NCBI GenBank assembly: GCA_963848135.1
Contig: CAWKCK010000012.1
Span: 94,061-135,101 of the forward strand
Direction: 5' to 3'
DNA from: an uncultured delta proteobacterium
Lineage (GTDB): Bacteria > Desulfobacterota > Desulfobacteria > Desulfobacterales > SG8-13
DNA length: 41,041 bases
The position numbers and the translations under genes are program-made. Below the pieces are notes generated by a model. The model ran no database searches, was not told where the DNA came from, and saw nothing but the letters and a program-made list of their open reading frames with translations. This document shows positions 8,633 through 31,238 of this stretch, in pieces. Numbering within the stretch: the first letter of the stretch is position 1; each line of letters begins with the position of its first letter.

Positions 8633-9001
8633 ATGAAGAGAAAGATTTTCCTGGTTATGTTTTTCATTTTGACTGTTTTCGCAACTACGGCCTTTGCCAA
8701 TAAAACGGCCGTGACCATCGAATCGCCCCTATCCGTAAAAAAGGGGGCTGAAATAATTATTAAAATCAATATCAGCCACAGCGCTAACAACTTTTTCCAC
8801 TACACAAACTGGGTTTACGTTCATGCCAATGGAAAAGAGATAGCGCGCTGGGATTTTACACGCAGCAATAAACCCGAAAGTAGCAATTTCACCAGGGAAG
8901 TCAGATACACGGTGACTGAAACAACGGAGATTACCGCAATGGGCAACTGCAACATGCATGGGAGTGCGGGCGAGGTTAAAATGGTGATAAAGGTAGAATA
9001 A
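8633..9001 (+). CDS. Exported superoxide-reductase/desulfoferrodoxin-like (SOR-like) protein
   Basis: Signal peptide ending AFA; H....HYTNW and CNMHG SOR-type ligand motifs; no EKH motif. Confidence 0.75.
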   Translation: MKRKIFLVMFFILTVFATTAFANKTAVTIESPLSVKKGAEIIIKINISHSANNFFHYTNWVYVHANGKEIARWDFTRSNKPESSNFTREVRYTVTETTEITAMGNCNMHGSAGEVKMVIKVE

Positions 9002-9417: not shown

Positions 9418-9468
9418 TTGACGATTCGATTTCTTAACGCTATAAGTATTCTATATATTAATTGAATA
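9418..9468 (+). promoter_or_regulatory. Sigma-70 promoter with ArsR-type operator
   Basis: TTGACG (9418)-17 nt-TATAAG (9441), followed directly by the imperfect palindrome TATTCTATATATTAATTGAATA (9447-9468). Confidence 0.7.
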
Positions 9469-9483
9469 GTTGAGGATGAAGCC

Positions 9484-10155
9484 ATGAAAAGCCCAAATAG
9501 ACAATTCAAAGACGCCATTTACGAGCAGTTTTCACGAATCGGCAAGGCAATTGCGAGCCCCAGGCGGTTGGAACTGCTCGATCTGTTGTGCCAGGGTGAA
9601 AAAACAGTTGAAACCCTTTCAAAAGAAACCGGTTTAACCGTGGCCAACACATCGCAGCACCTTCAGACACTTCGAGCGGCCCATCTGGTCAAAGCGGAAA
9701 AAGAAGGCCTGTACGTGACATATCGTCTCGCCGATCAAAGGGTCTGTGAGTTTTTCCGTTCCATGCGCGTGTTGGCTGAACACCGCTTGGCAGAAGTGGA
9801 AATGATCAAACGCCGTTTCCTGGAAGGCAAGCAAGGCATGGAGCCGGTAAGCAGAGATGATTTGGTACAGCGTGTTATCGAAGGTGCTGTCACCGTTCTA
9901 GATGTTCGCCCGGTGGAAGAGTTCCGGGCCGGACATATACCAGGGGCGTTGTCCGTTCCCCTGGAGCATCTTAAAGAGCTTCTCTCGAAGCTGCCATCGG
10001 ATCAGGAGATTGTCGCTTACTGCCGGGGGCCTTATTGCGTGCTGGCTGTTCAAGCGGTTGATATGCTACGCGGACAGGGTTTTGAGGCCATTCGCCTTGA
10101 AGAGGGTATTCAGGACTGGCGTGCCATGGGCCTGCCGGTGGAGGTTGGCGATTGA
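9484..10155 (+). CDS. ArsR/SmtB regulator fused to a rhodanese domain
   Basis: ASPRRLELLDLLCQG...SQHLQTLR wHTH; C-terminal LDVRP.EEF.AGHIPGA and YCRGPYC rhodanese loop. Confidence 0.93.
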   Translation: MKSPNRQFKDAIYEQFSRIGKAIASPRRLELLDLLCQGEKTVETLSKETGLTVANTSQHLQTLRAAHLVKAEKEGLYVTYRLADQRVCEFFRSMRVLAEHRLAEVEMIKRRFLEGKQGMEPVSRDDLVQRVIEGAVTVLDVRPVEEFRAGHIPGALSVPLEHLKELLSKLPSDQEIVAYCRGPYCVLAVQAVDMLRGQGFEAIRLEEGIQDWRAMGLPVEVGD

Positions 10156-10228
10156 AACATAGAGAAAATGACCATTGCTCCGGTGGGTTTTTAGGTTCAT
10201 GAAGTCTACTGTAAAGCAAGGGTGCACC

Positions 10229-11989
10229 ATGCAAAGCAAAAAATCAATACTTGTGGCAACTGTGGCCATCATCATTACCGCAGTCGCTGTGTGGCATGTG
10301 AAGCGTCCCATTGCGCCGAAGCAAGCCACTTGGGATGACGTCATAGCCGAGGCCAAGGCCGGTGGCTATCGCATCATCACCACCGAAGAACTCGCCGACC
10401 GGTATCACAATGACCCTTCCGGCTCATTGATGGTTGACACCCGACAGGATTGGGAATATCGCACCGGGCATATCGAGGGTGCTCTCAATTTTCCCATGGA
10501 ACCCACCTGGTGGTCTCGCTGGCGCAAATCGTCCGACTTGAGGGCCTTATTAGGACCGGACCAGGATCGCACCCTTGTTTTTTACTGAGCGGGTTTGACA
10601 TGAGTCCGCAGCGACTCGGCGGCCCGTGTGGCTGTTAACCTTGGTTACAAAAATGTCTACCGTGACCCTTACGGATTTCCGAAATGGCAAGAAATGGGCC
10701 TACCTACCGCCAGTGCACCGGCTGGACTTTCGGCACCAGACCAGGATGCCACCAAGCCGAAAGGCAATCTATCCCTCCAGGGTTGGGCCATGCTCTGGAC
10801 TCTTCTGGGCGTTTTCGCCGGCGGACTGGCCCTGAACCTGACGCCCTGCGTTTATCCCATGATTCCCATCACCGTGTCTTTTTTCGGCGGTCGAACGACC
10901 CAGGATAAGCCTGGCCAGATCAAGCTGGTAGCCCATGGACTCTGCTATCTGATGGGTCTGGCTCTGACCAACTCGACCTTAGGCGTCGTGGCAGCACTCA
11001 CCGGTGGTTTGATGGGAGCGATGCTGCAAAATCCCATTGTGCTCATCCTCGTGGCCGGCATTTTGGTCCTGTTCGCCACCAGCCTCTTCGGGCTTTGGGA
11101 ACTGCGCCTGCCCGGTGCCCTGAATCAAATGGCCAGCAAATCATACACTGGATATTTCGGCAGTCTGTTCATGGGGCTCACCTTGGGAGTAGTAGCGGCC
11201 CCCTGCATAGGTCCTTTCGTGCTGGGCTTGCTCACTTGGGTGGCTGGTATGGGCAACCCTTGGCTTGGTTTTCTAATTTTCTTCATCCTGAGCCTGGGGT
11301 TGGGCCTTCCCCTTTTCGTTCTGGCGCTCTTTTCCGGCCAACTGCAACGCCTTCCCCGTGCCGGCGGGTGGATGCTCTGGGTGCGTAACGTCATGGGCTG
11401 GGTCCTTGTCGGCATGGCGGTTTATTTCATCCGGCCGGTCCTACCCGAAGTCCTGAAGGTCATCCTGCCGGTCACGGTTGCTCTTGCCGCCGGGCTTCAT
11501 ATAGGTTGGTTCGATAAGAACCAGGCTGGTTTCAAGGCTTTCCCGTGGCTAAAGACCACCCTGGGCACAACCTGTCTGGTCTTTGCGACCTTTTTGATAA
11601 CCGGCTGGGCCATGCGGGGGCCGGGAATTGCCTGGCATTCCTATTCGGAGCACACCTTGCAGCAGGCCGCAACCCAAAATAAACCCGTGATCATCGACTT
11701 CTACGCCGACTGGTGCGCGCCGTGCCGTGAACTTGAAGAAGTAACTTTTCATCACGCCGAGGTAGTCCGACAGGCGCAAGTTGATTTCTCTATGATCAAA
11801 GTTGATGTGACCAAGGGCGGCGATCCATTTAATGAACGGTTGTTAAAGCAGTACGACGTTAAGGGGGTGCCCACCGTTGTGTTTCTGGATACACAGGGAA
11901 GAGAAAGAGCCGATTTACGTCTGGTGGATTTCCTGCCGCCTGAACTCTTCTTGATCCGAATGGCCAGTTTAAAGAAAGCCGAACCTTAA
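10229..11989 (+). CDS. tsoB: Rhodanese-DsbD(beta)-thioredoxin fusion selenoprotein with two Sec (586 aa; joins ORFs 10175-10588 and 10628-11989)
   Basis: One frame throughout: N-terminal anchor, rhodanese VDTRQDWEYRTGHIEGA...LVFY-U-AGLT-U-VRS (TGA at 10586 and 10601), DsbD TM domain LTPCVYP / AAPCIGP, C-terminal WCAPC thioredoxin. The symbol is recalled from memory of the Tso selenoprotein families and is not verified. Confidence 0.85.
10601..10636 (+). promoter_or_regulatory. Two tandem SECIS-like hairpins, one per UGA
   Basis: UGAGUC-CGCAGC-GACUCG (10601-10618, +13 from the first UGA) and GGCGGCC-CGUGU-GGCUGUU (10618-10636, loop GU at +23/+24 from the second UGA). Confidence 0.6.
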
Positions 11990-12156
11990 TATGGGAACAA
12001 TTCACAGAAGAAAATTTAGCGAGATGTTTTGATTCAAGCCTATCCTCGATGGAGTTGAATCCAGTCGATTTGATTCTCAAATGACTTAATGGGTATTAAG
12101 GTTCTATGGAATGCCCTGTTGATTTTCACGAGCAGCAATAAATAAGGAGAAATATC

Positions 12157-12474
12157 ATGCTTAACGTCCGATTCTTTCTCAACGAACCTAACGGTAAACC
12201 CTGAAAGCATTTCAAGCAAATGATCCCCGTGCTGGGACATAAGTATGAGATAAATATCGAAATTACTTCCAAGCCTAAAGCAGAATATATGACCGATGAA
12301 TATTTTGAGCTGGATCTTCCGGTTGCGCCAGCCGTAATGGTTGGAGACGACATTGTCGTGGAAGGCTCAGACGTCAGCCAATTCGACATTGAAACATCAA
12401 TCTGCAAACAGTTGAACCTGCCGTCGCCGGAACTTGAACACAAGGGGTTTTTGAAGAAGCTGTTCAAAGCGTAA
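12157..12474 (+). CDS. tsoC: NEPxGxxU-motif thioredoxin/glutaredoxin-like selenoprotein (105 aa, Sec16)
   Basis: RBS AAGGAGA and ATG 12157 give MLNVRFFLNEPNGKP-U-KHFKQM..., in frame with ORF 12220-12474. It has the cis-Pro-like segment VAPAVMVG and a hairpin AUG(A)UCCC-CGUGCU-GGGACAU at 12220-12240. The symbol is recalled from memory and is not verified. Confidence 0.82.
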
Positions 12475-12517
12475 CGAAAATTCATCTGAACCAATACGAT
12501 TTCTGAGGGGGATAGAA

Positions 12518-13027
12518 ATGGCCGTTATTGAAAAATTTTTAGGGCAACGTGTAGAGATACCTGAGGATCGCCGCTACGATGTCAAGCAGGGCCTCTGGGG
12601 AAGGTTTGTCGATCAGACCATCATCTTCGGGCTGACACAGCCAGCCCTGGTACTGTCCGGAGGGGTCAAAGACATCGAATGGATAGTCGATGAGAATCAG
12701 ATGGTTCGAAGGGGTGAATCGATCCTGTTTGCCATCACCGGCAAAATTCTGTACCTTGAAGCCCCGGTTGCTGGAAGCGTTCAATTCAATAAGATTACAC
12801 GGAAAAATTCATCCTTAATCACATCAGACCCTTACGATCAAGGATGGTTGTTCCTTATTCAACCGCATGGCGGGCTCGATCAGGCATATCAAAGCCTTTC
12901 GTCTCCAGAAGACTATCTCGAAAAGCTGCGCCACTCCGAAGGGTTCAAAAATCCGGAAGGGGTCAAAGGAGGCGTATCCGGCATCTGCAAAGCCGTTTAT
13001 ACCGGGATCGGGGAACAGAAGATCTGA
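12518..13027 (+). CDS. Glycine-cleavage H-protein-like (lipoyl-domain fold) protein
   Basis: IPEDRRY...W...FGLT, GE....GK...EAPVAG, N....DPY.QGWL GcvH pattern. Lys is retained but the ES(V)K context is replaced by ITGK, and there is a C-terminal extension containing Cys. Confidence 0.75.
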   Translation: MAVIEKFLGQRVEIPEDRRYDVKQGLWGRFVDQTIIFGLTQPALVLSGGVKDIEWIVDENQMVRRGESILFAITGKILYLEAPVAGSVQFNKITRKNSSLITSDPYDQGWLFLIQPHGGLDQAYQSLSSPEDYLEKLRHSEGFKNPEGVKGGVSGICKAVYTGIGEQKI

Positions 13028-13226: not shown

Positions 13227-14492
13227 TCATGTAAGACGATAGGCCACTGTTCCCTCAGGATGCTCATACCATCCCGGGTCGCGATCATAGCTCGCCAGGT
13301 GATCCCGGATCTTGATGACCGTAAACATGCCTCCCATTTCGATATTGCCGAAAGGTCCTTTACCCATCATCATCGGCAGTGTGTTTTTCGGCCCACCCAT
13401 ATGCTTGATGTGCTCGGAGTGCTCTGCCATGCCGGTTTCCCCCATGGCCATGTAGCCGGGAATGAGCTCTCGGATTTTTTCTTCCAGCTGCTGCTGGTTT
13501 GCCCCCAATGTGTTGGGAATCGCATGCCCCATCGCGTTCATGGTATGGTGTGACTTGTGGCAATGAAAAGCCCAGTCACCGGGGGCATCGGCAATGAACT
13601 CCACATCACGGGTAGCACCCACGGGTATCAGTGCCGTCGTTTCGGGCCAGCGTGCGCTTGGTGGTATTTCCCCGCCATCGGTCGCCGTTACCCACATGGA
13701 GTGGCCGTGAATATGAATCGGGTGCTCGTCCATGCTCAAATTGGCCAGTCGAATCCGCACGCGATCGCCGGTCCTAACGACTAAAGGATCAATGGCCGGA
13801 AATACTTTACTATTGAAAGTGAACATATTGAAGTCCAGCATCACGGCCGGGTCGGGCCGGTATGTTCCCGGATGCACCGCCCAGGCGTGCAGCATGATGG
13901 CAAAGTCCCGATCGATGGACGGCCCCACGGGTTCCTTCGGGTGAATGACAAAGACTCCCATCATCCCGACGGCCAGCTGTAGCATTTCATCGGCGTGGGG
14001 GTGATACATAAACGTGCCATGCTGCCGCAGGGTGAACTCGTAAACATATGTTTCTCCAGGTTTGATGTGGGGTTGGTTAAGACCGCCCACACCGTCCATG
14101 CCGTTGGGCAGAAAAATACCATGCCAGTGAATGGTGGTGTGCTCCGGAAGTCTGTTTGTCACTAAAATGCGAACGCGGTCGCCTTCGAAGGCCTCGATCG
14201 TAGGTCCAGGGGTTTGGCCATTGTAACCCCAGCATTTGACACTCATCCCGGGCGCAAATTCACGCATCACTGGCTCGGCGATTAAATGGAATTCCTTCAC
14301 ACCGTCTTTCATTTTGTAAGGCAACGTGGTCCCATTGGGGGTTACCACATGTGGTGACGATCGTCTTTTTCGAACCTTTGCAGGCTTTTGTTCGTGCTCA
14401 TTTTGGGCATTAACCCGCGAAGGTCTCAACAGTGCGCCTCCGCCGGATAGGGCAGTGATGGCAGTCATTAACCACTGACGTCGCGTCAGCAT
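13227..14492 (-). CDS. Tat-exported multicopper oxidase (two-domain type with Met/His-rich tail)
   Basis: TRRQWL Tat signal; HWHG, YHPH, HPIHIHGH and FHCHKSHH copper motifs. Confidence 0.92.
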   Translation of the reverse strand: MLTRRQWLMTAITALSGGGALLRPSRVNAQNEHEQKPAKVRKRRSSPHVVTPNGTTLPYKMKDGVKEFHLIAEPVMREFAPGMSVKCWGYNGQTPGPTIEAFEGDRVRILVTNRLPEHTTIHWHGIFLPNGMDGVGGLNQPHIKPGETYVYEFTLRQHGTFMYHPHADEMLQLAVGMMGVFVIHPKEPVGPSIDRDFAIMLHAWAVHPGTYRPDPAVMLDFNMFTFNSKVFPAIDPLVVRTGDRVRIRLANLSMDEHPIHIHGHSMWVTATDGGEIPPSARWPETTALIPVGATRDVEFIADAPGDWAFHCHKSHHTMNAMGHAIPNTLGANQQQLEEKIRELIPGYMAMGETGMAEHSEHIKHMGGPKNTLPMMMGKGPFGNIEMGGMFTVIKIRDHLASYDRDPGWYEHPEGTVAYRLT

Positions 14493-14504
14493 CGCATGCT
14501 CTCC

Positions 14505-15969
14505 TTATTGTTTGTGATGGTGGGTTTCGCGAGCGTCTTTAGGATCCCCGCCCGGTTTTTCGGCTGGTGCCGATGGTGGCAACAAGCTCCCGTCGGCAGC
14601 GGCTACTGGCAGTCGACCACCCACTGCTTTGCGCAAATCAGCCCGAATGATATAGTAGTCTCTGACAGCCTCAAGGTATTTTCCATATGTATCAAACTCA
14701 TGCTGCTTTGCCAGAAGCAAATCGAAGGCACCTACCAGCATGTAGTTGTACTTTTCCAGAGTCAGGGATACAATGCGTTCTCTCAGTGGCACGATAACTT
14801 GTTTGTAGTGATCGATCATATATCGTTGCATGACCAACTTGTCTCCGCAAGGTTCGGACTTCTGAGCGTACATCTACTGCCATTGCGGTCAGTTTGTTGA
14901 CCTCCTGCCTTAGCAGCGCTTCACCTTGGGCAATCTTTGCCTGGCGTTGATCAAACAACGGCAGTTCCAGCACCAACTCAGGGCCTATGACCCAGGTCCG
15001 ATCGGGATCTCGCTCCGCGCTGATTCCAACGTCCAGGTCGCCGATCCAGCGCCAGGTAACTGTCGTTCCCAGAGCTTGCGCAAGTACGTCGATATTTCTG
15101 CGCGCCGATTCAAGATCCAACCGGTTGGTGATCGCCAGGGTTTCCAACTGCACCATGGGGATTTCCTGCTTAGGAATATCCGGAAGCCGTGAGGGCAGTT
15201 GCCAGTCGATGCGCGTGCCCCACAGTCCCATCAAGCGAGTGAGCTGTTCTCTGGCGGTTGACAACAGAATATCACTCTCGGCCAGTCGCACCCTCATCTC
15301 TTCGTATTGCCCTTGTTCATTCGCAAGGTTCAACTCGCTGATGTTGCCGGCTTCGTAAAGGCGACGCGCAAATTCGAAAGAAGCACCAGACGCCTCGACG
15401 ATCTGTGCGCGGACCTGCCTTATGTTGGCAGCTCCTTGAACTTCAAAATAGGCCTTTTCAACTTCCGAAACAATCGAGAGCACTTCGTCGGCCACCATTG
15501 CCTTGGTCTGTTCGAATCGGGCTGCAGCTATCTTTTTGCGGGCCGGCAGCATGAGAAGATCCACGAAATTCTGAACAATGCCAAATTCGAGGTTGCTGGC
15601 AGCCGAGGATACATTGGGAAATCGAATGCTTCCGAACACAATCGGGTTTTTGAGCAGACCGGCCTGGACCACCTCCGCTTGAGTCACCCCCAGTTCTTCA
15701 TAGGTTGCCTGCAGCCGGGCATTGTTTAAAAGGGCGATCTGAACGGCCGAATCGACGGTCAGCTCCTTTTCCAGCAACGATTCGACGACCTGCTGCACTT
15801 CCCGATCTTCCGGCAGGCCCTGGTTCCAGGACACGCGGTAGTCCATGCGTTCGTCGACCATCCGCTGCACGTCCTGGAAGCCGCCTTTGCGGGGTACCTG
15901 GGCGCACCCTGTAATGACAAACCCTATCACGGTGAAGATGACAACTAACTTGCCGCCTGTGGCTTTCAT
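14505..15969 (-). pseudogene. TolC-family outer-membrane lipoprotein (copper resistance), split by a +1 frameshift
   Basis: Lipobox ITGC; AVQIALLNN and LPLFD OEP motifs. ...EVRTLR continues as DKLVMQRY...YNYMLVGAFDLL..K in the frame of ORF 14505-14873 once one extra base at about 14844-14846 is removed. Confidence 0.8.
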
Positions 15970-16307
15970 TGCCCCTTCTCCATGTTATGATGATCCGGCA
16001 TTTCGGAGGGAGACCGATCAGTTTCTCTTCTTTCTTGCTCGAGGGGTGCCGATTGGCCGGCCGGCGATTCAAAAAGATCCCCGCGCGACTTGCGCCGGTC
16101 CGCTTCGATTTCGGATTGATCGTGTGTTTGGGGGCCGGCACTCGTCATTTCAGTGCCAAACGGGTCCGGCGGGGGGATGAACCGGGATTCGGGTGCGCCG
16201 GGATCAGCAGGATGATTCTGCGGTAGCTCGACAGATACCGGATTTCCGGCACAGCCGATCACAAGAGACAGAATAACCAGCAAAACTAAATCTTTTATAT
16301 TAGCCAT
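15966..16307 (-). CDS. Small lipoprotein with HPA motif and His/Met tail
   Basis: Lipobox VIGC, PQNHPADP.APE, C-terminal MPDHHNM; its stop overlaps the TolC start (ATGA). Confidence 0.75.
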   Translation of the reverse strand: MANIKDLVLLVILSLVIGCAGNPVSVELPQNHPADPGAPESRFIPPPDPFGTEMTSAGPQTHDQSEIEADRRKSRGDLFESPAGQSAPLEQERRETDRSPSEMPDHHNMEKGQ

Positions 16308-16328
16308 GGTCTCAATTTTCTATAGGGA

Positions 16329-16925
16329 TTATGAGATGGATGAGGATGCCGAGAACCACATTTCGTAAAGACCTCGGAATAAAACAAAGACAAATACCGC
16401 TCCGAAGAGCCCTCCTCCCGGAATATGGAGCCAGAAAAAAGCAGGAGAAATAAAGCCTTTCAGCCACATTGATGCGATGTCGATCCAGATTCCCAAGAAT
16501 GGGAGGGCAATCAACCAGGCACGCATGTCTGCTCCCAAATTGAGAAATACGACCACCGCGCCCATCAGGATGAATATCGTGCTCATGCCGAAGAGATGAA
16601 TGTGGGTCCATTTCAGCGTCCAAACAAATTGTTCGCTTTTGTAGAAGGGTTCTTGAAGCTTTTTAGGGGAGCTTTCCGTCAGGTTCGAAAATAGGTCGCC
16701 CCGTGCATCGCTCTTAAGGGGGGACTGAGGAGGTTTAGAAACCTCGGGGTTCAACTCAGCTGAGGCGAATTTCGGTATGATGTCGTGAATGACGATTTGC
16801 CCCAGAGCCCCTAACATGCCAACAGCCATCGTAAGCATAATCGCTGTCACCAGCACCTTTGCCGGCAGTGGAAACTGCCTCAGCGTTGGCCAGTTGTGTA
16901 TTGCATCATTATTTTTCACTATCAT
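16329..16925 (-). CDS. Hypothetical membrane protein
   Basis: About four hydrophobic segments with a THIHLFG His motif; co-oriented with the TolC/MCO operon. Confidence 0.7.
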   Translation of the reverse strand: MIVKNNDAIHNWPTLRQFPLPAKVLVTAIMLTMAVGMLGALGQIVIHDIIPKFASAELNPEVSKPPQSPLKSDARGDLFSNLTESSPKKLQEPFYKSEQFVWTLKWTHIHLFGMSTIFILMGAVVVFLNLGADMRAWLIALPFLGIWIDIASMWLKGFISPAFFWLHIPGGGLFGAVFVFVLFRGLYEMWFSASSSIS

Positions 16926-17158
16926 TCCTTTAACCCGGAAATTTCATCAAATGGAGGATTTTATGGCCAAGGCATTTCGAGGTGATGCTGTAGTCAGTTT
17001 ACCGCGATTCTCGAATAATCACGCTATAGCGTGACCATGGGAGCCTCCGGTTGACCCGAAGGGTGCAATCTTTTTAGCTCTTTAATTATATGTTGGGGAG
17101 GTACAAAGTGTCCCTCGGTCATCCGGTTCATGAGTTTGACCAATACCCCGATATGGCG

Positions 17159-17188
17159 CCATTTAAAATTTGAAACGCTCACTTTAGG
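17159..17188. mobile_element. Solo terminal fragment of MITE/IS family A
   Basis: CCATTTAAAATTTGAAACGCTCACTTTAGG matches 430-459 at 29 of 30 positions; no partner end nearby. Confidence 0.75.
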
Positions 17189-17287
17189 TTCAACACAAAC
17201 GTTCTGAAACACCCGCTCGGAAACAGTCACGCCACGTCCTTCGCCAGCAAAACATCACGAGAATTAGTAGCATCTGCAAAAACGATA

Positions 17288-17656
17288 CTACTCGCCGGTA
17301 AAGTTAGAACCGGCATACTCTCCTTGTAGAGTAAAAAATATAAAGACTGATTTCGGGTCGCCCTCTGCGCGATGAAAAGCCACGACCACCTCGGTGTCGT
17401 TTCCCTTCTGCCGATGAGAGACTTCAACCCTTTCAAGGCTGGTTTCCCAGGCTGGATCCAATTTTTGGCTGTCGATCAGCTTGTCGTAAAGCTCAGTGGC
17501 TTTCTTCAGGGCGGCCAGATGAGTGAATTCGCCCATGTCGTGGGCTTTGCCGCCGTGGGCGAATACAACTGCCGCTGCAAATAATAAAATTAACAACATA
17601 AATAGAGTTATTCGAATGGAGTTGCCTCGTATAGGTTTTGTATTATCGCGAATCAT
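17288..17656 (-). CDS. Exported protein with N-terminal His motif (DUF6488-like)
   Basis: Signal peptide ending VFA, then HGGKAH; C-terminal FIFFTLQGEYAGSNFTG. Confidence 0.7.
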   Translation of the reverse strand: MIRDNTKPIRGNSIRITLFMLLILLFAAAVVFAHGGKAHDMGEFTHLAALKKATELYDKLIDSQKLDPAWETSLERVEVSHRQKGNDTEVVVAFHRAEGDPKSVFIFFTLQGEYAGSNFTGE

Positions 17657-17865
17657 TTAGATTTCTCCCATCTACCTGTTTCTCATCCCAAGCTTACTGT
17701 TTAAGTAAATGTTATAATCTTAATCACCGTCGGTGGCAGTATCAAGATACTGCTGGAGATCTCGAAGGCTACCGTGATGATTGATGTAAACAAAATGCTC
17801 AACGCCTATTTGTATATGCGGCACCAGTATCGTTAATCTATAGGATTTAATCTGAATTTTTACAT

Positions 17866-19461
17866 TTATACCTTCACGTAATAATTACGCATCATCCCCA
17901 TATCTTCATGTTCCAAGTTGTGGCAATGGTACAAGAACATGCCGGGGTAATCATCAAAATCAACTAAGATTTTTATTCGCTCACCGGGCATCAGTAAAAC
18001 AGTATCTTTCCAGCCCTCATCCACATAGCCTTGATGCCTGACACCGCTACGTTCAATGACTCGAAACTGCTTACCGTGGAGGTGAATGGGATGCGGCATA
18101 TCCATCATGTTCATCATTCCACCGCCGGTATTATGGAATTCCCAAATCTCTTTTGAGCCTAATTGAACAATCTCGTCATCCGCCACACCTTCCATCTGAA
18201 ACACTCGACCATTGATCGACCATTGCATATGCCGCATCGTGAGATAAAATTGCCGAGGGTTGGAATAGTTAGCAGCTTCATCTATTCGGAGGGGTGTAAT
18301 TTCAGAAAGGTATTCCGGCAGCGACTGTTTTTTTACCACACGCTTTGAAACTTTAATTTTGCATACAGTAAAGCCAGCACCGTTTGGAAGGCTTTGATTC
18401 TGGCGCATTCCTCCGCCCATCATCATTCCGCGTCCCATCCGTCCACCACCCATTCCTCCAACGTCGAAAGGAAGGCTTATTAGGGATGTCTCAAAATCGA
18501 TCGGACTGTCACTAAAATCTGCCCAGATCTCCAACCTTTCCCCAGGGCTTAGAAACGTATACTTTCGGTACACAGGTTTTTCCAATAATCCTCCGTCCGT
18601 ACCGATGATGGTAAGAGGGCGGCCATCTTTCCACGCCAGTTTGTAGATTCGTGAATTAGAACCATTTAACAGGCGTAATCGATACGCACTGGTCGCTACC
18701 GGCAGGGTGAAATCAACCATCCCGTTAACCATTATCCAATCACCCAAAAACCCGGTCATCTGCTCCATCCTGTGACCTGAAGTGTATACGAGCTGATTGT
18801 CTGGATCAAACATGCGGTCTTGCAACACCAGGGGAATATCATATTCATCATCGGGCAAGCCCAAGGCCTGTTCTTCCTCATCAGAAACAAGAAAAAGGCC
18901 TGCCAGCCCGTTATAAACCTGTGGGCCTGTTCTACCGTGGGGATGGGGGTGGTACCAATATGTACCGGCTCTGTTATTGACCTCGAACTCGTATAAGTAA
19001 GATTGTCCTTGTGGAATCACGTAACGCGGATGACCGTCCATAATCGCGGGGACATGAAGGCCATGCCAATGCACAATAGATTCTTCCGGGATTGAGTTGA
19101 AGAAACGAATTCGTATTTTCTCTCCCTGATGAACTTTTATGATCGGGCCAAGATAGCTTCGCGGGAGTTCGATCACCCGGTTTTTATCGCCTTTATGCAC
19201 AATCGCATGGTACTGCCAAACCCGTGTGGGATCTCCTGGGAAAATAGTTACCTCACCAGGTCGCGCTGTGAGGGTAATATCAAGGTCAGGGTTAAATTCT
19301 GTTCCCGGATTTGTCTCTTGATTTTTCCCTGCAAGCGAGGGCTTTAATAGAGGCCAAGCCCCACCTGTTATCATACCCAGCGTTCCGAATCCGGCCAGTT
19401 TCAGAAACTGTCTTCTGTTATTCCTGTCTTCATTCCATAAAACCGTATTTCTCTTTTTCAT
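17866..19461 (-). CDS. Tat-exported three-domain multicopper oxidase (CueO-like, Met-rich insert)
   Basis: NRRQFLK Tat signal; HWHG, WYHPH, HPIHLHG, YHCHNLEHEDMGMM; insert GGMGGGRMGRGMMMGGGM. Confidence 0.93.
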   Translation of the reverse strand: MKKRNTVLWNEDRNNRRQFLKLAGFGTLGMITGGAWPLLKPSLAGKNQETNPGTEFNPDLDITLTARPGEVTIFPGDPTRVWQYHAIVHKGDKNRVIELPRSYLGPIIKVHQGEKIRIRFFNSIPEESIVHWHGLHVPAIMDGHPRYVIPQGQSYLYEFEVNNRAGTYWYHPHPHGRTGPQVYNGLAGLFLVSDEEEQALGLPDDEYDIPLVLQDRMFDPDNQLVYTSGHRMEQMTGFLGDWIMVNGMVDFTLPVATSAYRLRLLNGSNSRIYKLAWKDGRPLTIIGTDGGLLEKPVYRKYTFLSPGERLEIWADFSDSPIDFETSLISLPFDVGGMGGGRMGRGMMMGGGMRQNQSLPNGAGFTVCKIKVSKRVVKKQSLPEYLSEITPLRIDEAANYSNPRQFYLTMRHMQWSINGRVFQMEGVADDEIVQLGSKEIWEFHNTGGGMMNMMDMPHPIHLHGKQFRVIERSGVRHQGYVDEGWKDTVLLMPGERIKILVDFDDYPGMFLYHCHNLEHEDMGMMRNYYVKV

Positions 19462-19480
19462 TTTTAAATCCCTGCAAAGT

Positions 19481-19849
19481 TTATTGGAGTATGTCTTTTT
19501 TCATGGTTTCAAATTCATCCTGGGAGATTTCTCCCCTGGCATAGCGCTCTTTGAGAATATCAATCGCTTTAGGACCCACGCTTTCACCAGAATGCCCTTT
19601 ACTGCTCGTGTTCTGAATCAGCCATCGAATCAGCGACACGAGGCCGACAACAATCAGGCCCCAGAATATAATCATGAAAATCATACCAAACCATCCCATT
19701 CCCCACCCGTCCATCATCCAACGCCCCATGTGCCAGTCATTGTACCGGTCTGATTGGGCCAAAGTGGGATTTGCTAAAAATAAACTGCCTGGTATCAACA
19801 CGGATAAGGATCCCGCCAACACTTTTCGGAACCTGTATTTGTCTTTCAT
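19481..19849 (-). CDS. SHOCT domain membrane protein with Met/Gly/Trp-rich segment
   Basis: HMGRWMMDGWGMGW, a TM helix, and AIDILKERYARGEISQDEFE. Confidence 0.85.
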   Translation of the reverse strand: MKDKYRFRKVLAGSLSVLIPGSLFLANPTLAQSDRYNDWHMGRWMMDGWGMGWFGMIFMIIFWGLIVVGLVSLIRWLIQNTSSKGHSGESVGPKAIDILKERYARGEISQDEFETMKKDILQ

Positions 19850-19969
19850 TTTATACACCCTGTACAATATCGCCTAATGCCATAAATAAGCCGTAAATTG
19901 ACCTTTTCACAAGATCACAGAACTATTGTTATTGGGTTTACCTGGCCGTATAATATTTTTAAAATGAAT

Positions 19970-19989
19970 GGGGCGACTGTCGCCGCCCC
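19970..19989 (-). terminator. GC-rich hairpin after the zraP-like gene (terminator or mRNA stabiliser)
   Basis: GGGGCGGC-GACA-GTCGCCCC followed by ATTCATTTT on the minus strand. Confidence 0.45.
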
Positions 19990-20017
19990 TTTACAAGTCT
20001 TCACTGCGCTTTTAGAA

Positions 20018-20527
20018 TTACCACCTGCAGTAGTATCCGCCACTATTGGGACCATAGCCCATCATCGGGCCATTTCCCATCATTGGGCCATATCCTCCAT
20101 AGCCACGGTCATAATTGGGTGCTGATTTTCTGGCCTGAAGTTCATAGTCCAGCCCTTTCTGATCGAGGTCAGCTTGAAGTTTGGAAATTTCACCCTGCAG
20201 ACTCGATGCTTTCGCAGTGTCCGGATTTTCCTTGGCCAGCTCGCTTCTCAGGGCAAGCTCTTTTTCGTAAAGCTGTTGCCGGGTATTTTCAGTCGCTTTG
20301 AAGAATTCAGCACGTTGTTGATCCAGTTTGGCTATCTCTTCACTTGAAAGGTTGCCAGAGTATCCTTCTTGGCCGTACCCATATCCACCCATTTGATTCC
20401 AACCCGGCCCCATCATGGGCCCCATCATATGTCCGTATCCTCTACCCCAACCGGCAAATGCGAGGGCGGTCATGCCAAAGATCGCTAAAACCGTTAGTAT
20501 CATTATTCCTTTTACTTTCCTGTCCAT
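20018..20527 (-). CDS. ZraP/Spy/CpxP-family periplasmic metal-responsive protein
   Basis: Signal peptide, Gly/Met/Tyr-rich termini, LSSEE...RQQLYEKELAL..EL...PD helical core; RBS GGAGG. Confidence 0.85.
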   Translation of the reverse strand: MDRKVKGIMILTVLAIFGMTALAFAGWGRGYGHMMGPMMGPGWNQMGGYGYGQEGYSGNLSSEEIAKLDQQRAEFFKATENTRQQLYEKELALRSELAKENPDTAKASSLQGEISKLQADLDQKGLDYELQARKSAPNYDRGYGGYGPMMGNGPMMGYGPNSGGYYCRW

Positions 20528-20593
20528 TGTTACCTCCATAAGTGTTAGTTGATGTGTTATAAGGTGGTCACGTTACTTGGACGATCTTCACAA

Positions 20594-20830
20594 TCATGAT
20601 TTGTTGTCATCAGGATTGGAAGGGGTGGAATGAAATCCCTTATGCATGAATACATGCATCAGCGGGCACAACAGAATCAGCAGAAAGTATGCGGAACTGC
20701 CTATTATTCCTGTCCATGAAAGAAACAGCAAAAGAACTAGTGGCGCAGCACAACCGAGAAGCATGAGCAGGGCGTGATTCTGTTTGAGTGATTTCTGCGA
20801 GAATGATTCGATGAGCCGCTTCATATTCAT
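20594..20830 (-). CDS. DUF2933-like small membrane protein
   Basis: HALLMLLGCAAP...LLCPLMHVFMHKGFH motif. Confidence 0.75.
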   Translation of the reverse strand: MNMKRLIESFSQKSLKQNHALLMLLGCAAPLVLLLFLSWTGIIGSSAYFLLILLCPLMHVFMHKGFHSTPSNPDDNKS

Positions 20831-20888
20831 TTTCCGATACTTTGTGTTTATGAGAGAGTGCATTCACTCTTAAGGTTAGCCTCGTGTA

Positions 20889-21146
20889 TCAATGGCAGCT
20901 CGGCGTTTTGCCGCCGGTGGCTTTGTTCAGCCGGTCCAGGTATCTCTGCCAGACTCCTTTACGTTTCATCTTCCCAGTGGATACAAGGTACTTTTGCGGT
21001 TTGTTTTCAAAGGCCTTGCGGCACGATTCGGCACAGAAGAAATAGGTGTGGCCTTCAAAATCGACGGCCTTAACCTTCGTTTCTTGTTCAACAATCATAC
21101 CGCAGACCGGATCCAAATTTTCTATACGTGATCTGTAAAGATTCAT
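20889..21146 (-). CDS. YHS domain protein
   Basis: DPVCGM...YFFCAESCRKAF..KPQKY with a C-terminal PSCH; ATG 21146 follows GGAGG. Confidence 0.88.
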   Translation of the reverse strand: MNLYRSRIENLDPVCGMIVEQETKVKAVDFEGHTYFFCAESCRKAFENKPQKYLVSTGKMKRKGVWQRYLDRLNKATGGKTPSCH

Positions 21147-21282
21147 TTTTTCCTCCTGCTGGTTGATCTCTACACTGGAAATTGGACTTTGACTCATTTG
21201 TTTACCAATTTTAACTTTGGAGGGAAATTTTCCAACGTAGGTAATCTCCAACCTGTTCCATTATCCTTTACTATTATGTCAA

Positions 21283-21455
21283 AGCATAAAGCATGCCAAC
21301 ACTACCACATAGTGGTAATGATGCGTGCAAGTAACTGATTGATCAATAACAATTCAGATAGGAAGAGCTTGGTGGATGTTTGGGGGTTCAGCCGAGTGGA
21401 TAGTTTATACCCACATTTGTGGAAACCCTATACTTCTGCTGCGCACAAATTACAC
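21283..21455 (-). promoter_or_regulatory. Sigma-54 promoter with paired enhancer sites for the YHS-zraP-MCO operon
   Basis: Minus strand TTGGCAT-GCTTT-ATGCT at 21283-21299; palindromes GGATA-N5-TACCC (21398) and GCGCA-N5-TACAC (21441). Confidence 0.75.
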
Positions 21456-21707
21456 ACCTTAGTACAATCGTTATTGTCGTCGAATTCGATATCAGGCACC
21501 GTTGTAGCGAAAACCCGACAAAGAGGTAGTAAAATTTCAGTTTAGATTCAGGCGAATAGATTTTGGAGAAAGAACAACGACAGGCAAAAGGGGATAATAT
21601 TTTCTTTGTTGCGAGCCTTGCCTATGGCTTAATACATAGTAATTAGCGAAACTTTACACCCAATAAAGGTGGATGGTTTCCATATAGAGGGTTTGAGACC
21701 AGGTTTC

Positions 21708-22586
21708 TCAACAACTCGGTGGATCAAGCATCCAAGGTGCTGGGCGGTATGTTTCCCTGCGCCAGCGCCAATTTAGATCGATGATCTCACCGGGCTTGTC
21801 GATCTGGTAGAGGGCTTCGAAGGCCCTTCCAAGAACGGCGGCCTGCTGCGGGATGTTGTGAGCTTCTCCTAATGGATGCCCAAACGGCCAATGTAAGAAG
21901 ATCGACCGCGGTGGTTTGATTTCTTCGGTGTATTTTCGCACGATAGATATACTGATGGTGGCGATACCGACGGATTCGATGACTCGTTGAATCAATCCAA
22001 CGGATTGATTGCAAATCCCTCAGGCCGGCGTCAATAGAACAACATCCACCTCGTCCGCTCTGAGTATAGACGCCACTTTGGGAGCGGTCTGGTTTATCAA
22101 CGTGTCGATGTGTTTACCATCAATATGGCCCATGAAGCTGATATGCCTTTCGGCCAAGGCACCGATGCAGCCCGCTGCTGACATCTCTTTGAGGCGTGTG
22201 ATGGGAAAAACGATATTGATGTCTTTATCGGCATCGCGGTGATCGTAGTAATCGTGTGTGATGGTGAAGTCGTTTTCTATACTGGCGGTATCAAGAATAC
22301 GGTAAGTAGGATCGCCATCGGAATCAGCCATATTGAATGCGGGTTGCTCACGGTGGTGCAATCCGGCAGTGGTTACGACAGCGATCTTGGATTCATTCAG
22401 CGGTTTGGTCACTTCTACCCATGGACTTTTGTAAAATGCCAGGGGCTTAAATGCCTCTATCAGCTTATTGGAGAGGTACGGCCAATAGGTCGTCAGGCGG
22501 GCAATCCCCTGATGAATAAGTCTTCTTATTGCTACAGGCGCTTCAAATCTGTTTATTATTCTCAATCGATACGACCTCTTAATCAT
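21708..22586 (-). CDS. PrdB/GrdB-like (glycine/proline reductase selenoprotein B family) UxxC selenoprotein (joins ORFs 22020-22586 and 21708-21995)
   Basis: IAVVTTAGLH, GDPTYR, HDYYD...DINIVFP, then VLLTPA-U-GICNQSVGLIQRVIE..GIAT in one frame (TGA at 22020-22022), and KPPRS...PFGHPLG. Confidence 0.9.
21990..22010 (-). promoter_or_regulatory. Bacterial SECIS-like hairpin
   Basis: Perfect 9-bp stem AAUCAAUCC-GUU-GGAUUGAUU starting 10 nt after the UGA. Confidence 0.7.
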
Positions 22587-22787
22587 CTCTTTCCTGTTGT
22601 TCGATAAATCGTCATCAACCGGCGGTTTGGCTTGCGGAGGGGTGTGGCGACCATCGTGTCCACCGCAGCAACCGATGCTGCCTTTTATTGAAATAGCAAG
22701 TATATGAACGAACTGACAATAATCAATGTTTATTGTATTTCTTGCTAAAACAATACGCTAATAAAAATCATCGTCAAAATTAAGGTA

Positions 22788-23267
22788 TCAGTACATGAGG
22801 ATGAGCGCACCGGTGAAGGCCGCCAGGACGGACAACAGCCAAAAGAGGACCCTTGCGTTTTTTTGGACACCAGCATAACAGGCGCTATAACTTTCAATAT
22901 TGCTTAATATGGTAAACAATTCAGACGCTATTTCCCAAAAGGCCTGGACGGACACCACAAAAAAGGGCATCTTGAACAAGGCCATCGATCCTGCGCCCCA
23001 AGACACCAATAACAGTATACCTGCATATAACAGTGCCAGAGGAACAGTCTGCAGATGCCCTACCTCATGTTGGATGTTCAGGGAAACCGAGTTCTTCATT
23101 TTCAGTCCCCGCCTGAGAAGCCAGTTTACCGCGGCCGGATGCGGAACTAAAAAATTTCCGAAACCGGTCTTATGCATAAATTTAGATCGAAGGGTTACGG
23201 TTGCGTTTATCCCGTACCATGTCCGGAGCTGCAGAACCTGGGGGTATTGCCATACGTCTGCCGTCAT
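22788..23267 (-). CDS. Hypothetical membrane protein with HExxH motif
   Basis: QHEVGHLQ followed by TM helices and a WEIASE segment. The likely start is ATG 23267; the ORF is open from 23306. Confidence 0.65.
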   Translation of the reverse strand: MTADVWQYPQVLQLRTWYGINATVTLRSKFMHKTGFGNFLVPHPAAVNWLLRRGLKMKNSVSLNIQHEVGHLQTVPLALLYAGILLLVSWGAGSMALFKMPFFVVSVQAFWEIASELFTILSNIESYSACYAGVQKNARVLFWLLSVLAAFTGALILMY

Positions 23268-23362
23268 TTGGCCCTTTTCGTCTCTTTCGGAGACCATCCA
23301 ACCCACTAATGCCGATACACATGGAGTCGACGTAGCGGCGGCATGACACGATCGGTGTCATT

Positions 23363-23379
23363 AGCAACGTTCATGCCGA
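23363..23379 (-). promoter_or_regulatory. Sigma-54 promoter
   Basis: Minus strand TCGGCAT-GAACG-TTGCT with GG-N10-GC spacing. Confidence 0.55.
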
Positions 23380-23528
23380 ATTCCAAGAGACGAAATGCTC
23401 ATTTAAGATCATTGGAAAAATGCAGTTTTTCCCATTTTTTTTTAGCGGAGTAGAGGCACTGGTCAGCACGATTGATATAAGTAGATGCGTCTTCACCGGG
23501 ATCATATCTGCGAGATCAAGCTGAATTA

Positions 23529-24080
23529 TCAGACAATCAGCAGCTTGAAAGCGATGGCTATCAGGAGAAGACCCCCAAATATTTCCATCCGTTGTGTAAG
23601 CCTGCCGGAAAGTTTATTACCCAATTTCATGGCCAGCCAGGTCATTGCGGCTGCCGTGATGCCGATCCACACCGCCATCCAAAAAAAGCTTTGCCCCAGA
23701 ATACCGATTCCAAAACCGACTCCCAGGGCATCGATACTTGTGGCCAGGGAAAGCATCACCAAACTCATGCCTTTTGTGGGATCGGGGCATGATACCTTTT
23801 CTTCACCAGACAGCGTACCTTCTCGAACCATCCTGGCACCGATAATAAAAAGGAGGCCGAAAGCAATCCAGGTTCCCCATCTCTGAGCCCAGTCGATGAT
23901 ATAATGGGCGGCCATCCAACCAATGAGGGGCATCATGAACTGAAAGAGACCGAAATGAAACGACAATCGAAACACTTGCCGGGGTGCACCACAGCGCGTA
24001 CCGACGCCAAACCCGACGGCAAAAGCATCACAGCCGAGCGATACGGCTATCAATCCGATCTCGGTGACGTTTAAGCTCAA
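23529..24080 (-). CDS. mntP: MntP family manganese efflux pump
   Basis: SLGCDAFAV, FGLFQFMMP, IGARM, ATSIDAL, GGLLLIAI motifs. Confidence 0.9.
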   Translation of the reverse strand: MSLNVTEIGLIAVSLGCDAFAVGFGVGTRCGAPRQVFRLSFHFGLFQFMMPLIGWMAAHYIIDWAQRWGTWIAFGLLFIIGARMVREGTLSGEEKVSCPDPTKGMSLVMLSLATSIDALGVGFGIGILGQSFFWMAVWIGITAAAMTWLAMKLGNKLSGRLTQRMEIFGGLLLIAIAFKLLIV

Positions 24081-24107
24081 TGATTATCTTTCCGAATGCC
24101 TGTTTGC

Positions 24108-24875
24108 TCAGACATGAATGACAATGATGGTAATATTGTCCTTGCCGCCGTTTTCCAATGCCGTCTGTAGTAGTTCTTGGGCAGTTTGCTCCGGAGGGAG
24201 TTGGCGCTTGAGTATGTCTTCAATCGTATTGACTGAAACCAAACCATGAAGCCCGTCGGAGGACAATAGGAAACAGTCTCCATGCGCGATATTTAGTCTG
24301 TCGATTTCGATCTCTTCCAGGGGTTCCTGGGTACCCAAAGCTCGGGTGAGCATATTTCGCAGCGGGTGATAAACCGCCTCATCCGGGGACAATTCACCCT
24401 CCTCGATCATTTCCTGGACAAAAGTATTGTCGCTTGTCAGCTGATTTAACCGTCCGTTGCGGAACCGGTAAATTCGGCTGTCGCCCACATGGGCCAATAC
24501 GGCAAAATCGCCTGAGAAAACAATCGCCGATAACGTGGTCCCCATGTGTTCGCATTCCGGATCCTCGATGGCCTCTTGTTTTATTTGCCGGTCTATCGAA
24601 CGGACGAGTTCCTCAATCTGTCTCAAATGGTTTCTTGGAGGTGATCCGGAATGACCGCTGAAGTAAGTTTTCAAAAGATCACAGGCCAACCGACTGGCAC
24701 GATCACCACAGGAGTGTCCACCGATTCCATCGGCCACGGCAAACAACATTCCTCGCCCGTTATTGTGGATAGCGTTATTGTGGATAGCATACGCCACATA
24801 ATCATCTTCATTGCGTTTTCGTTGCAGCCCGATGTCGGAAAGCGCGTAATACCGCATCGTATCGATTGTCGTCAT
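24108..24875 (-). CDS. PP2C-family Ser/Thr phosphatase (Stp1/PrpC-like)
   Basis: SDIGLQRKRNED, VADGIGG, MGTT, HVGDSRIY, LTRALG, SSDGL, GGKDNIT. Confidence 0.95.
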   Translation of the reverse strand: MTTIDTMRYYALSDIGLQRKRNEDDYVAYAIHNNAIHNNGRGMLFAVADGIGGHSCGDRASRLACDLLKTYFSGHSGSPPRNHLRQIEELVRSIDRQIKQEAIEDPECEHMGTTLSAIVFSGDFAVLAHVGDSRIYRFRNGRLNQLTSDNTFVQEMIEEGELSPDEAVYHPLRNMLTRALGTQEPLEEIEIDRLNIAHGDCFLLSSDGLHGLVSVNTIEDILKRQLPPEQTAQELLQTALENGGKDNITIIVIHV

Positions 24876-24897
24876 TGACCCTGGCCTGTTTGAGTGT

Positions 24898-25236
24898 TTA
24901 CTGAAGCCGTTTCATGAATTGAATGCGGCCGTTTTGTTTGTCTACCAATAGTTCATCGATCAGGCTGCCGTCCGGTCGGACGACCCGGGCGACATAGTAC
25001 CTCCCCTTATTTTGCAATCCTTTGAGGCGGTAAGATTCAGTAATACGGCGGCTCGCTTCCCGGTCGATGATTATTCTGGCAGTACCGGTACCCATACCGT
25101 CGAGAATGTCCTGCAGGCGTTGCGAATCCTCCACGCTGTCATTTGTTTTGCCTTGGCCAGCAGTTTCTTCCACATCTGGCAGACGGTGACGGCCGGCTCG
25201 TTTGATCAGCTTTTCTATGGATTCTATCAGATTCAT
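24898..25236 (-). CDS. Hypothetical protein between kinase and phosphatase
   Basis: 112-aa ORF with tight operon spacing; the C-terminal YVARVV.PDGS..DELLVDKQNG resembles a PepSY-like beta motif. Confidence 0.65.
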   Translation of the reverse strand: MNLIESIEKLIKRAGRHRLPDVEETAGQGKTNDSVEDSQRLQDILDGMGTGTARIIIDREASRRITESYRLKGLQNKGRYYVARVVRPDGSLIDELLVDKQNGRIQFMKRLQ

Positions 25237-25257
25237 GTCTTCACCTAAATGTTACCG

Positions 25258-27174: not shown

Positions 27175-27269
27175 GCGTTCTCATATTTTTCCAGTTATCG
27201 GCAGTGATTGTTGAAAAAAGGTCCAGCATATTGCTTTTATTGTTCTCGACAATGAATATCGCTCTTGCT

Positions 27270-27773: not shown

Positions 27774-27788
27774 TATATTCTCCTCCTC

Positions 27789-30236: not shown

Positions 30237-30308
30237 GACGATTTCCTTCCATAATGTTTACAGGTGCAGCTGTTATAAGCGACAGTTTACAGGGCGCAAT
30301 TACTGGTT

Positions 30309-30592: not shown

Positions 30593-30601
30593 CGATGATT
30601 A

Positions 30602-31004: not shown

Positions 31005-31047
31005 AAGTTGTCTCTTTATTGTGAAATGGGTTATTGTTAACTAAAGA

Positions 31048-31206: not shown

Positions 31207-31238
31207 AGTCGTAAAGGGATGAGACGACGGGACTATAG

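Follow-up and report, generated by a model that had tools for sequence, protein, structure and literature searches.

We consider a four-gene operon in a 41,041-nucleotide stretch of DNA (contig CAWKCK010000012.1; the whole stretch is called the window below) from an uncultured delta proteobacterium. The best explanation overall, to which we give a probability of about 0.6, is that this is an inducible operon of the tso type in a two-selenoprotein form: a repressor made of an ArsR domain and a rhodanese would control a DsbD-like membrane protein, TsoB, whose rhodanese carries two selenocysteines (Sec), together with the small selenoprotein TsoC and a protein related to GcvH, and TsoB would relay electrons from the cytoplasm to its selenocysteine pair in the periplasm.

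The Tso families are already named. The relevant sections of a 2026 review (PMC13188914) list TsoA (motif LULAxC, NF045695), TsoB (UxxxxU), TsoC (GxxU), TsoX and TsoY, credit them to Haft & Tolstoy 2025 (mSystems 10:e0141724), and present the tso ('three selenoprotein') operon as a trio of selenoprotein genes near which other, unrelated genes for selenoproteins are found. Set against the tso system through these sections and the NCBIfam models, the operon of the window is a tso variant without TsoA and with an ArsR-rhodanese regulator. An initial annotation, made from the letters of the DNA alone, knew of no demonstrated function for these proteins, and our literature search, in which Haft & Tolstoy 2025 itself was not included, likewise found none for the tso proteins.

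Two samples are used for comparison. The first is a set of 55 loci, which comprises the window, 11 loci anchored on TsoB (the true TsoB loci among the matches listed) and 43 loci anchored on the GcvH-related gene (L139-L141, from Nocardia and Gemmatimonadota and with matches of 36-46 residues, were left out before counting); 37 of the 55 have a tso gene. The second is an even sample of 401 genomes from the phylum. Since the locus sets are anchored on the very genes being counted, unbiased frequencies come from the phylum sample only, and the relatives compared are not mutually independent. The genome to which the window belongs is 6.03 Mb long and 98.65% complete.

The operon and its control region

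The features of the operon, including the hairpins that are candidates for the selenocysteine insertion sequence (SECIS), are the following.

9418-9446, + strand: promoter-like site read from the sequence (-35 TTGACG at 9418-9423, 17-nt spacer, -10 TATAAG at 9441-9446)
9447-9468, + strand: candidate operator palindrome TATTCTAT-N6-ATTGAATA, abutting the -10 (sequence reading and conservation)
9484-10155, + strand: ArsR-rhodanese regulator (NF033788, Pfam)
10229-11989, + strand: TsoB (NF045694), 586 residues with TGA read as Sec
10586-10603, + strand: Sec codons of TsoB, TGA at 10586-10588 (codon 120) and at 10601-10603 (codon 125), with four conserved codons between
10601-10618, + strand: hairpin H1 (TGAGTC / loop CGCAGC / GACTCG), candidate SECIS of the first Sec, 12 nt after UGA-1
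10619-10635, + strand: hairpin H2 (GCGGCC / loop CGTGT / GGCTGT), candidate SECIS of the second Sec, 15 nt after UGA-2
12157-12474, + strand: TsoC (NF045708), starting 167 nt downstream of TsoB
12202-12204, + strand: Sec codon of TsoC, TGA, codon 16, in NEPNGKPU
12226-12236, + strand: short GC hairpin of TsoC, four pairs, 21 nt after the UGA
12518-13027, + strand: GcvH-related protein (NF045810)

The four genes (9484-13027) share one strand, each is preceded by a Shine-Dalgarno-like stretch, and together they hold three Sec codons, two in TsoB and one in TsoC, just as the initial annotation had read them. The names TsoB and TsoC, which it offered, are borne out by a hidden Markov model search against NCBIfam, where TsoB scores 997.5 bits on NF045694 (cut-off 805) and TsoC scores 142.8 bits on NF045708 ('NEPxGxxU motif selenoprotein TsoC', cut-off 45); the fourth protein scores 256.9 bits on NF045810 (GcvH_rel_desulf, cut-off 150). 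With the tso system the operon shares TsoB and TsoC over their equivalog cut-offs, the UxxxxU and GxxU motifs, the gene order, the strand and the NF045810 match. It differs in that the window's genome has no match to TsoA, TsoX or TsoY, and in that the ArsR-rhodanese fusion takes the place of TsoA and of a TsoR-type regulator.

The promoter and the operator palindrome that had been proposed upstream of the first gene also stand up in comparison. Five of the ArsR-rhodanese loci have upstream DNA, and when these regions are aligned the TTGAC of the -35 is invariant in all five and the palindrome arms are kept in all five, with the consensus TATTCAAT-N6-ATTGAATA. The strict palindrome has a single occurrence in the genome, and a looser version is found once, ahead of a decayed paralogue on contig C7. 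Positions 9447-9468 are a candidate for the operator. The consensus promoter scan does not list the site at 9418-9446 because its -10 ends in G, and the inverted-repeat tool does not pick up the palindrome at 9447-9468 because the arms in the window agree at only 7/8 positions. Further upstream, about 480 nt before the regulator, a small protein (8633-9001, + strand) begins with a signal-peptide-like segment and carries a desulfoferrodoxin-type iron domain (CN-x-HG).

Selenocysteine and the architecture of TsoB

The reading of the TGA codons of TsoB and TsoC as Sec is well supported by comparison of sequences. Both TGAs of TsoB are in frame in all 24 full-length TsoB loci of other genomes, where the motif takes the form [FY][YL]-U-[AED]GL[TAS]-U-[VA]RS. 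In the phylum sample 26 of the 401 genomes have a TsoB over the cut-off, and each of the 30 places concerned holds exactly two TGAs; codon 16 of TsoC is TGA in 30/30 loci. A search of a protein collection with the rhodanese part returns one full-length fused homologue, P0125 (578 aa, from a cluster of 24 sequences), in which cysteines occupy both positions (FY-C-TGQT-C-VRS). Rhodanese and DsbD parts made as separate proteins, with no fused cysteine homologue, had been named in the initial annotation as something that would undo its reading; P0125 is such a homologue. In the remaining 69 of the 70 hits the gene call begins just past the second TGA and is about 450 aa long, so that public annotation cuts TsoB to a 'DsbD' fragment.

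Two hairpins follow the TGAs of TsoB. In H2, 99.3% of the alignment cells are paired and 10 cells are compensatory, all of them at synonymous third positions (G-C to A-U in 7 sequences, C-G to U-A in 3). In H1, whose stem includes UGA-2, 89.6% of the cells are paired over 24 sequences and one is compensatory, so that H1 is the weaker SECIS candidate of the two. Taken jointly, their covariation score is reached by none of 500 shuffles, and slid controls are 22-53% paired. An extended outer stem of H1 (columns 4-10 with 36-42) was ruled out, as it is 78% paired with zero covariation. The genome also encodes its own Sec machinery, with tRNA-Sec and with SelB (374 bits), SelA (622 bits) and SelD (372 bits) all above cut-off.

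We turn to the architecture of TsoB. Pfam places a rhodanese at residues 52-155, a DsbD_TM domain at 189-405 (PF02683, 147 bits) and a thioredoxin-like domain at 468-554; the Sec loop reads FY-U-AGLT-U-VRS (U120 and U125) and the thioredoxin-like domain has WCAPC at 495-499. The cysteines of the membrane pair (C207 and C326) as well as C496 and C499 are invariant in 23 TsoB sequences. The AlphaFold model built with 23 sequences has a predicted local distance difference test score (pLDDT) of 71 and a predicted template modelling score (pTM) of 0.47, and runs from a helix (2-24) through the rhodanese, a disordered linker (164-183) and eight membrane helices to the thioredoxin domain. By Foldseek, the C-terminal domain resembles the solved DsbD-gamma (1uc7, TM-score 0.77, 32% identity), and the rhodanese domain has several rhodaneses among its matches, one of them Sud, a periplasmic polysulfide-sulfur transferase (1qxn, TM-score 0.64).

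A DsbD whose alpha domain is replaced by a membrane-anchored U-x4-U rhodanese, as the initial annotation had described TsoB, is also what Pfam, the model and the N-terminal helix give. With DsbD/ScsB, TsoB shares the membrane domain with two conserved Cys and the C-terminal thioredoxin-like CxxC domain. The ordinary DsbD relatives found by the same search, however, keep the usual Ig-like alpha domain, which ends in a Cys pair with C-x4-C spacing, whereas TsoB has the two-Sec rhodanese at that position and scores 264.4 bits on the DsbD model NF001419, below its cut-off of 330. Lys and Arg, as read from the sequence, are concentrated in membrane loops 1-2, 3-4, 5-6 and 7-8, which would put both soluble domains outside as in DsbD, and export of a periplasmic rhodanese would require just such an N-terminal helix; we infer this placement from homology.

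A rhodanese fold predicted to face the periplasm would be common to TsoB, Sud of Wolinella and PspE, while the coupling of a reductase module to a rhodanese loop is found in Npsr-type reductase-rhodanese fusions as well. TsoB differs from these in having two Sec where they have one Cys, and its reductant would come through a membrane relay and not from a flavin. Few bacterial proteins, to our knowledge, carry two neighbouring selenocysteines, and the tso proteins are among them.

Several related observations concern TsoB or Sec. In the near-identical relative L097 (4072-7508) the regulator is 99% and the GcvH-related protein 94-100% identical to those of the window, whereas TsoB shares only 73-77% identity and aligns as two pieces that overlap, a pattern pointing to recombination or else to a frameshift or an assembly fault. 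TsoB is cut to a C-terminal remnant in L096 (2796-2945, ~50 residues) and in L132 (1858-2217, ~120 residues), with TsoC and the GcvH-related gene retained. The window also has a PrdB-like selenoprotein gene (21711-22586, - strand) about 9 kb from the tso genes. Its open reading frame runs for 188 aa to a TGA, and reading through it (U189, TPA-U-GICNQ) lifts the score on D-proline reductase PrdB from 112.3 to 169.1 bits, with a match over model positions 17-236 of 238 that is still below the 300-bit cut-off. A YHS-domain gene (20643-21251, - strand) was dropped as a selenoprotein, as read-through of its TGA gave no family match. On contig C7 of the same genome lies a lipoprotein-type rhodanese (L095 6113-6550, + strand; 172.7 bits on NF041203, cut-off 115) with LY-U-A-U, that is, two in-frame TGAs two codons apart.

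The regulator and the partner genes

The regulator scores 72.2 bits on NF033788 (cut-off 55) and 49.1 bits on the TsoR model NF045707, below the cut-off of 115; the TsoR of locus L103, which has the canonical gene order, scores 160.8 bits on the latter. Pfam finds HTH_5 at residues 25-70 (43.9 bits) and Rhodanese at 124-214. The active loop of this rhodanese is C180-RGPY-C185, with a C-x4-C spacing equal to that of U-x4-U in TsoB, and C36, C180 and C185 are invariant in 7 regulator orthologues.

The missing TsoA, already remarked on in the initial annotation, proves to be missing from the whole genome, where NF045695 has no match; the LULAxC motif was not found in the window, and TsoX and TsoY have no match in the genome either. 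The blank for TsoA is meaningful because the same search detects TsoA in 39 of the 401 sampled genomes, often directly beside TsoB and with one TGA in each match, except for four weak partial matches. TsoA is present in 22 of the 26 TsoB genomes of this sample. The others are G000, G008 (79% complete), G181 and G325, of which G000 and G181 are those with an identified regulator; in both, an ArsR-rhodanese stands directly upstream of TsoB, and that of G181 is 71% identical to the regulator in the window. Among the 55 loci, a full-length ArsR-rhodanese occurs in 7 (the window, L011, L097, L098, L100, L119 and L132) and TsoA in 18, and no locus has both. Because the two never occur together in these loci and the canonical order is TsoR-TsoA-TsoB-TsoC, with TsoR and TsoA upstream of TsoB and TsoC, the ArsR-rhodanese fusion is a minority alternative that stands in place of TsoR and TsoA. 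The C-terminal third of TsoA (L009 7217-7786 and other TsoA genes) has a weak match to the winged helix HTH_24 (E 7.4e-4, under the cut-off), and TsoA may be a DNA-binding partner of TsoR.

Conservation of all four genes together, which the initial annotation had expected, is borne out for TsoB and TsoC only. TsoC accompanies TsoB in 29 of the 30 loci with a long TsoB match and in 22 of the 26 TsoB genomes. The other two genes do not follow: the ArsR-rhodanese is found in 7 loci versus 18 with TsoA, and the GcvH-related gene, above cut-off in 8/401 genomes, is in only 5 of the 26 with TsoB. In the neighbourhood survey that had been suggested for it, the GcvH-related gene comes out as an accessory tied to TsoC, which is present in all 8 sampled genomes that have the gene. 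The TsoB-anchored set alone would imply no link to tso, as the gene is in none of its 11 TsoB loci (among the matches listed); the GcvH-anchored set and the phylum sample overturn this.

TsoC and the GcvH-related gene are neighbours whose order varies (TsoB-TsoC-GcvH-related in the window, TsoB-GcvH-related-TsoC in G312 and G360), and TsoB or TsoC lies beside the GcvH-related gene in 25 of the 43 loci anchored on it. Where TsoC is absent, the gene adjoins other thioredoxin-like selenoproteins (HUIPC, NF047660). The non-tso loci show a recurring cluster of NF047660 HUIPC selenoproteins, MTH895/ArsE-type thioredoxin-like proteins, thioredoxin reductase, CobW-like GTPases, a B12-binding protein, a URO-D/MtaA-like methyltransferase, RACo, cobalamin adenosyltransferase, aquaglyceroporin and DUF2284. 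This TsoB-less cluster, seen in L109, L110, L113, L114, L116 and L118, looks like a corrinoid-dependent methylation system. Found in 5/26 TsoB genomes, with TsoC in every sampled genome that has it, and also in these non-tso clusters, the GcvH-related gene keeps company with small thioredoxin-like selenoproteins as an accessory gene and is not a core part of tso.

The GcvH-related protein has the fold of GcvH and keeps its lipoyl-Lys position: the model (pLDDT 88) has a GcvH core (1onl, TM-score 0.89 by Foldseek), and K76, which is invariant, aligns with the lipoyl-Lys of GcvH in 1onl and 3a8i, so that lipoylation is possible. It differs from GcvH in scoring only 25.3 bits on TIGR00527 (cut-off 115.85), in an extra tail that bears a Cys, and in standing beside thioredoxin-like selenoproteins and not beside gcvT/gcvP, neither of which is in the window. 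The C-terminal tail (residues 152-169) is flexible and modelled as disordered (pLDDT <50), with an almost invariant motif GGVSG-x-C157-KAVY; C157 is invariant in 34 and in 31 sequences. Lipoate-binding GcvH-like proteins also occur in sulfur-oxidising Hdr-like systems.

TsoC has no Pfam match. Profile comparison with the neighbouring MTH895/ArsE-type thioredoxin-like proteins gives a weak local match from end to end (E 7.8e-4, probability 25%), in which G13 falls on the first Cys, U16 on the second and APAVMVG on the cis-Pro loop; comparison with HUIPC-type fragments gives nothing (E 0.024 and 0.3). As neither TsoC nor the GcvH-related protein has a signal sequence, both are read as cytoplasmic.

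Two further observations belong to these genes. On contig C7 (L095 9846-10400, - strand, about 128.8-129.4 kb) the first ~34 residues of an ArsR-rhodanese-like protein run straight into a GcvH-related protein that scores 208 bits. This is the decayed paralogue mentioned above, with the operator-like palindrome upstream and an in-frame TGA at the Gly75 of the family, and it looks as if a deletion had removed the middle of a second operon copy. The TGA was rejected as a feature of the family, in which G75 is invariant in the alignment and every translated GcvH-related sequence has Gly there except that of L109, which has Ala. An unknown protein and an HdrD-like CCG/4Fe-4S protein form a pair that follows TsoC in L011 (5543-7182) and lies near the GcvH-related gene in L130; judged from these two loci, the pair is a possible reductase partner.

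A proposed electron relay and its possible substrate

Combining these parts, we arrive at the following mechanism. The repressor would occupy the palindrome until its C-x4-C loop reacts with an inducer. TsoB, lying in the inner membrane with its two soluble domains on the periplasmic side, would receive two electrons from a cytoplasmic donor at C207/C326 and would pass them to the WCAPC domain and on to U120/U125 of the rhodanese outside, where the pair would be kept as a diselenol or would cycle between diselenide and diselenol. We consider this path through TsoB likely, judging from homology and the invariant residues. The diselenol would then capture or reduce a thiophilic species in the periplasm, and TsoC and the GcvH-related protein, as a cytoplasmic pair, would either feed TsoB or handle the same species inside the cell. 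That these two proteins work as a pair is rather probable, while their role as donors to TsoB is less likely than not. Since the two loops share the x4 geometry, the repressor and the effector may have the same target; we see an even chance that the rhodanese loop of the repressor reacts with the same species as TsoB and then frees the operator.

For the substrate we lean to metalloid or chalcogen oxyanions (As, Se and Te species), the foremost candidate, though with odds short of even. This preference comes from the ArsR-type regulators (both TsoR and the ArsR-rhodanese are of the ArsR family), from ArsM, which is near tso in 11/37 loci, and from the aquaglyceroporin, the corrinoid methyltransferase parts and DUF2284 that accompany the GcvH-related gene in its non-tso clusters. 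Sulfane sulfur or polysulfide follows close behind as the main rival, on account of the rhodanese fold, of the sensor's own rhodanese and of MccSep as a precedent, and is possible, if somewhat doubtful. Soft metals of the Cu/Hg type are an unlikely substrate, and some other species is equally so.

Several points weigh against the explanation that we prefer. The TsoB model is of moderate quality and cannot establish that the gamma domain reaches the rhodanese loop. The hairpin of TsoC is conserved but without covariation, which makes it no more than a candidate. With a single Sec (GxxU), TsoC is not a classical dithiol donor; the GcvH-related gene is absent from 21/26 TsoB genomes, so that its product cannot be obligatory as a donor; and an ordinary thioredoxin may serve TsoB instead. 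ArsM is absent from the window and from 26/37 tso loci, and the window's own neighbours are of the copper type (multicopper oxidases, CopA, TolC-like, YHS, Metal_resist). Sulfane sulfur is also no worse a match than metalloids for a rhodanese fold and for a sensor that bears a rhodanese.

The most probable alternative is that of a polysulfide or persulfide reductase, which departs from the preferred explanation in its substrate only. U120 would take sulfane sulfur from periplasmic polysulfide, U125 would resolve it with release of sulfide, DsbD-gamma would re-reduce the diselenide, and the ArsR-rhodanese would sense cytoplasmic persulfide. The resemblance of the TsoB rhodanese to Sud fits, as do hosts that are Desulfobacterota of sediments and a sensor that carries a rhodanese and weakly matches the sulfur sensor BigR, although the BigR score (33.8 bits) is far below the cut-off of 155. 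A working precedent for the chemistry also exists: the periplasmic multiheme Sec enzyme MccSep of Geobacter was shown to cleave S-S bonds of polysulfide and to reduce selenite (PMC13510729). Like TsoB as we predict it, MccSep has a periplasmic Sec residue, but its fold is unrelated and its electrons come from hemes. What speaks against polysulfide is the neighbourhood, where no sulfur-metabolism genes were seen recurring beside tso loci and where ArsM and other metal-linked genes recur instead. We regard this alternative as possible but doubtful.

It is also conceivable, and on balance less probable, that TsoC and the GcvH-related protein are not donors to TsoB, but bind a metalloid or chalcogen in the cytoplasm, at Sec16, C157 or a lipoyl arm, and pass it to methyltransferases, with ordinary thioredoxin serving TsoB. 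The TsoB-less clusters of the GcvH-related gene with the B12-binding protein, the URO-D/MtaA-like methyltransferase, RACo, CobW-like GTPases, thioredoxin reductase, aquaglyceroporin and DUF2284 agree with such a role, and so do the ArsM genes that follow tso in the 11/37 loci, the conserved Cys on the disordered tail, and two sampled genomes (G065 and G101) in which TsoC and the GcvH-related gene co-occur and no TsoB passes the cut-off. The adjacency of TsoC to TsoB in 29/30 loci argues the other way, and no methyltransferase lies near the operon in the window.

Protection of the envelope from copper or other soft metals would put TsoB beside the DsbD-like ScsB, which acts in copper tolerance; the diselenol would bind Cu(I)/Hg(II) or repair periplasmic thiols damaged by metal. 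This alternative is suggested by the metal-resistance island (13227-32874, - strand) in which the operon is set and which, besides SHOCT and DUF6488 proteins, contains the following genes.

13227-14492, 17866-19461 and 31534-32874, - strand: multicopper oxidases
14698-15969, - strand: TolC-like gene
20018-20539, - strand: Metal_resist/ZraP-like protein
20889-21251, - strand: YHS-domain protein
27789-30236, - strand: CopA P-type ATPase with two HMA domains

The copper-type context, however, is common to the window and the near-identical L097 only and is not found at other tso loci, which makes this alternative improbable. Hardly any weight remains for the TGAs as true stops, giving a truncated rhodanese and a separate DsbD-like protein or genes in decay: gene callers do stop there, as in the 69/70 fragments, and damaged related loci do exist (L016 with an extra stop, L096 and L132 with the TsoB remnants), but the rhodanese loop would be broken exactly at its catalytic position, 24/24 loci keep both TGAs and the four intervening codons, a fused Cys/Cys homologue exists, the hairpins covary and the genome has the full Sec machinery.

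Returning to the preferred explanation, the TsoA-less variant eases the question of what the tso system does, with two selenoproteins only and with a defined promoter and palindrome. As the loop of the sensor copies that of the effector, reporter or gel-shift assays with a few candidate inducers could reveal the substrate, and the natural Cys/Cys homologue P0125 needs no Sec machinery for its expression. In a bolder version, which we hold to be unlikely, the C-x4-C repressor and the U-x4-U effector would be a matched sensor/effector pair fed by a thioredoxin-independent relay, from a lipoylated GcvH-like carrier with a swinging Cys tail to TsoC and into the DsbD-type conduit, and would detoxify thio-metalloid or chalcogen species in sulfidic sediments. 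If true, this would be a transmembrane electron path from lipoate to selenium.

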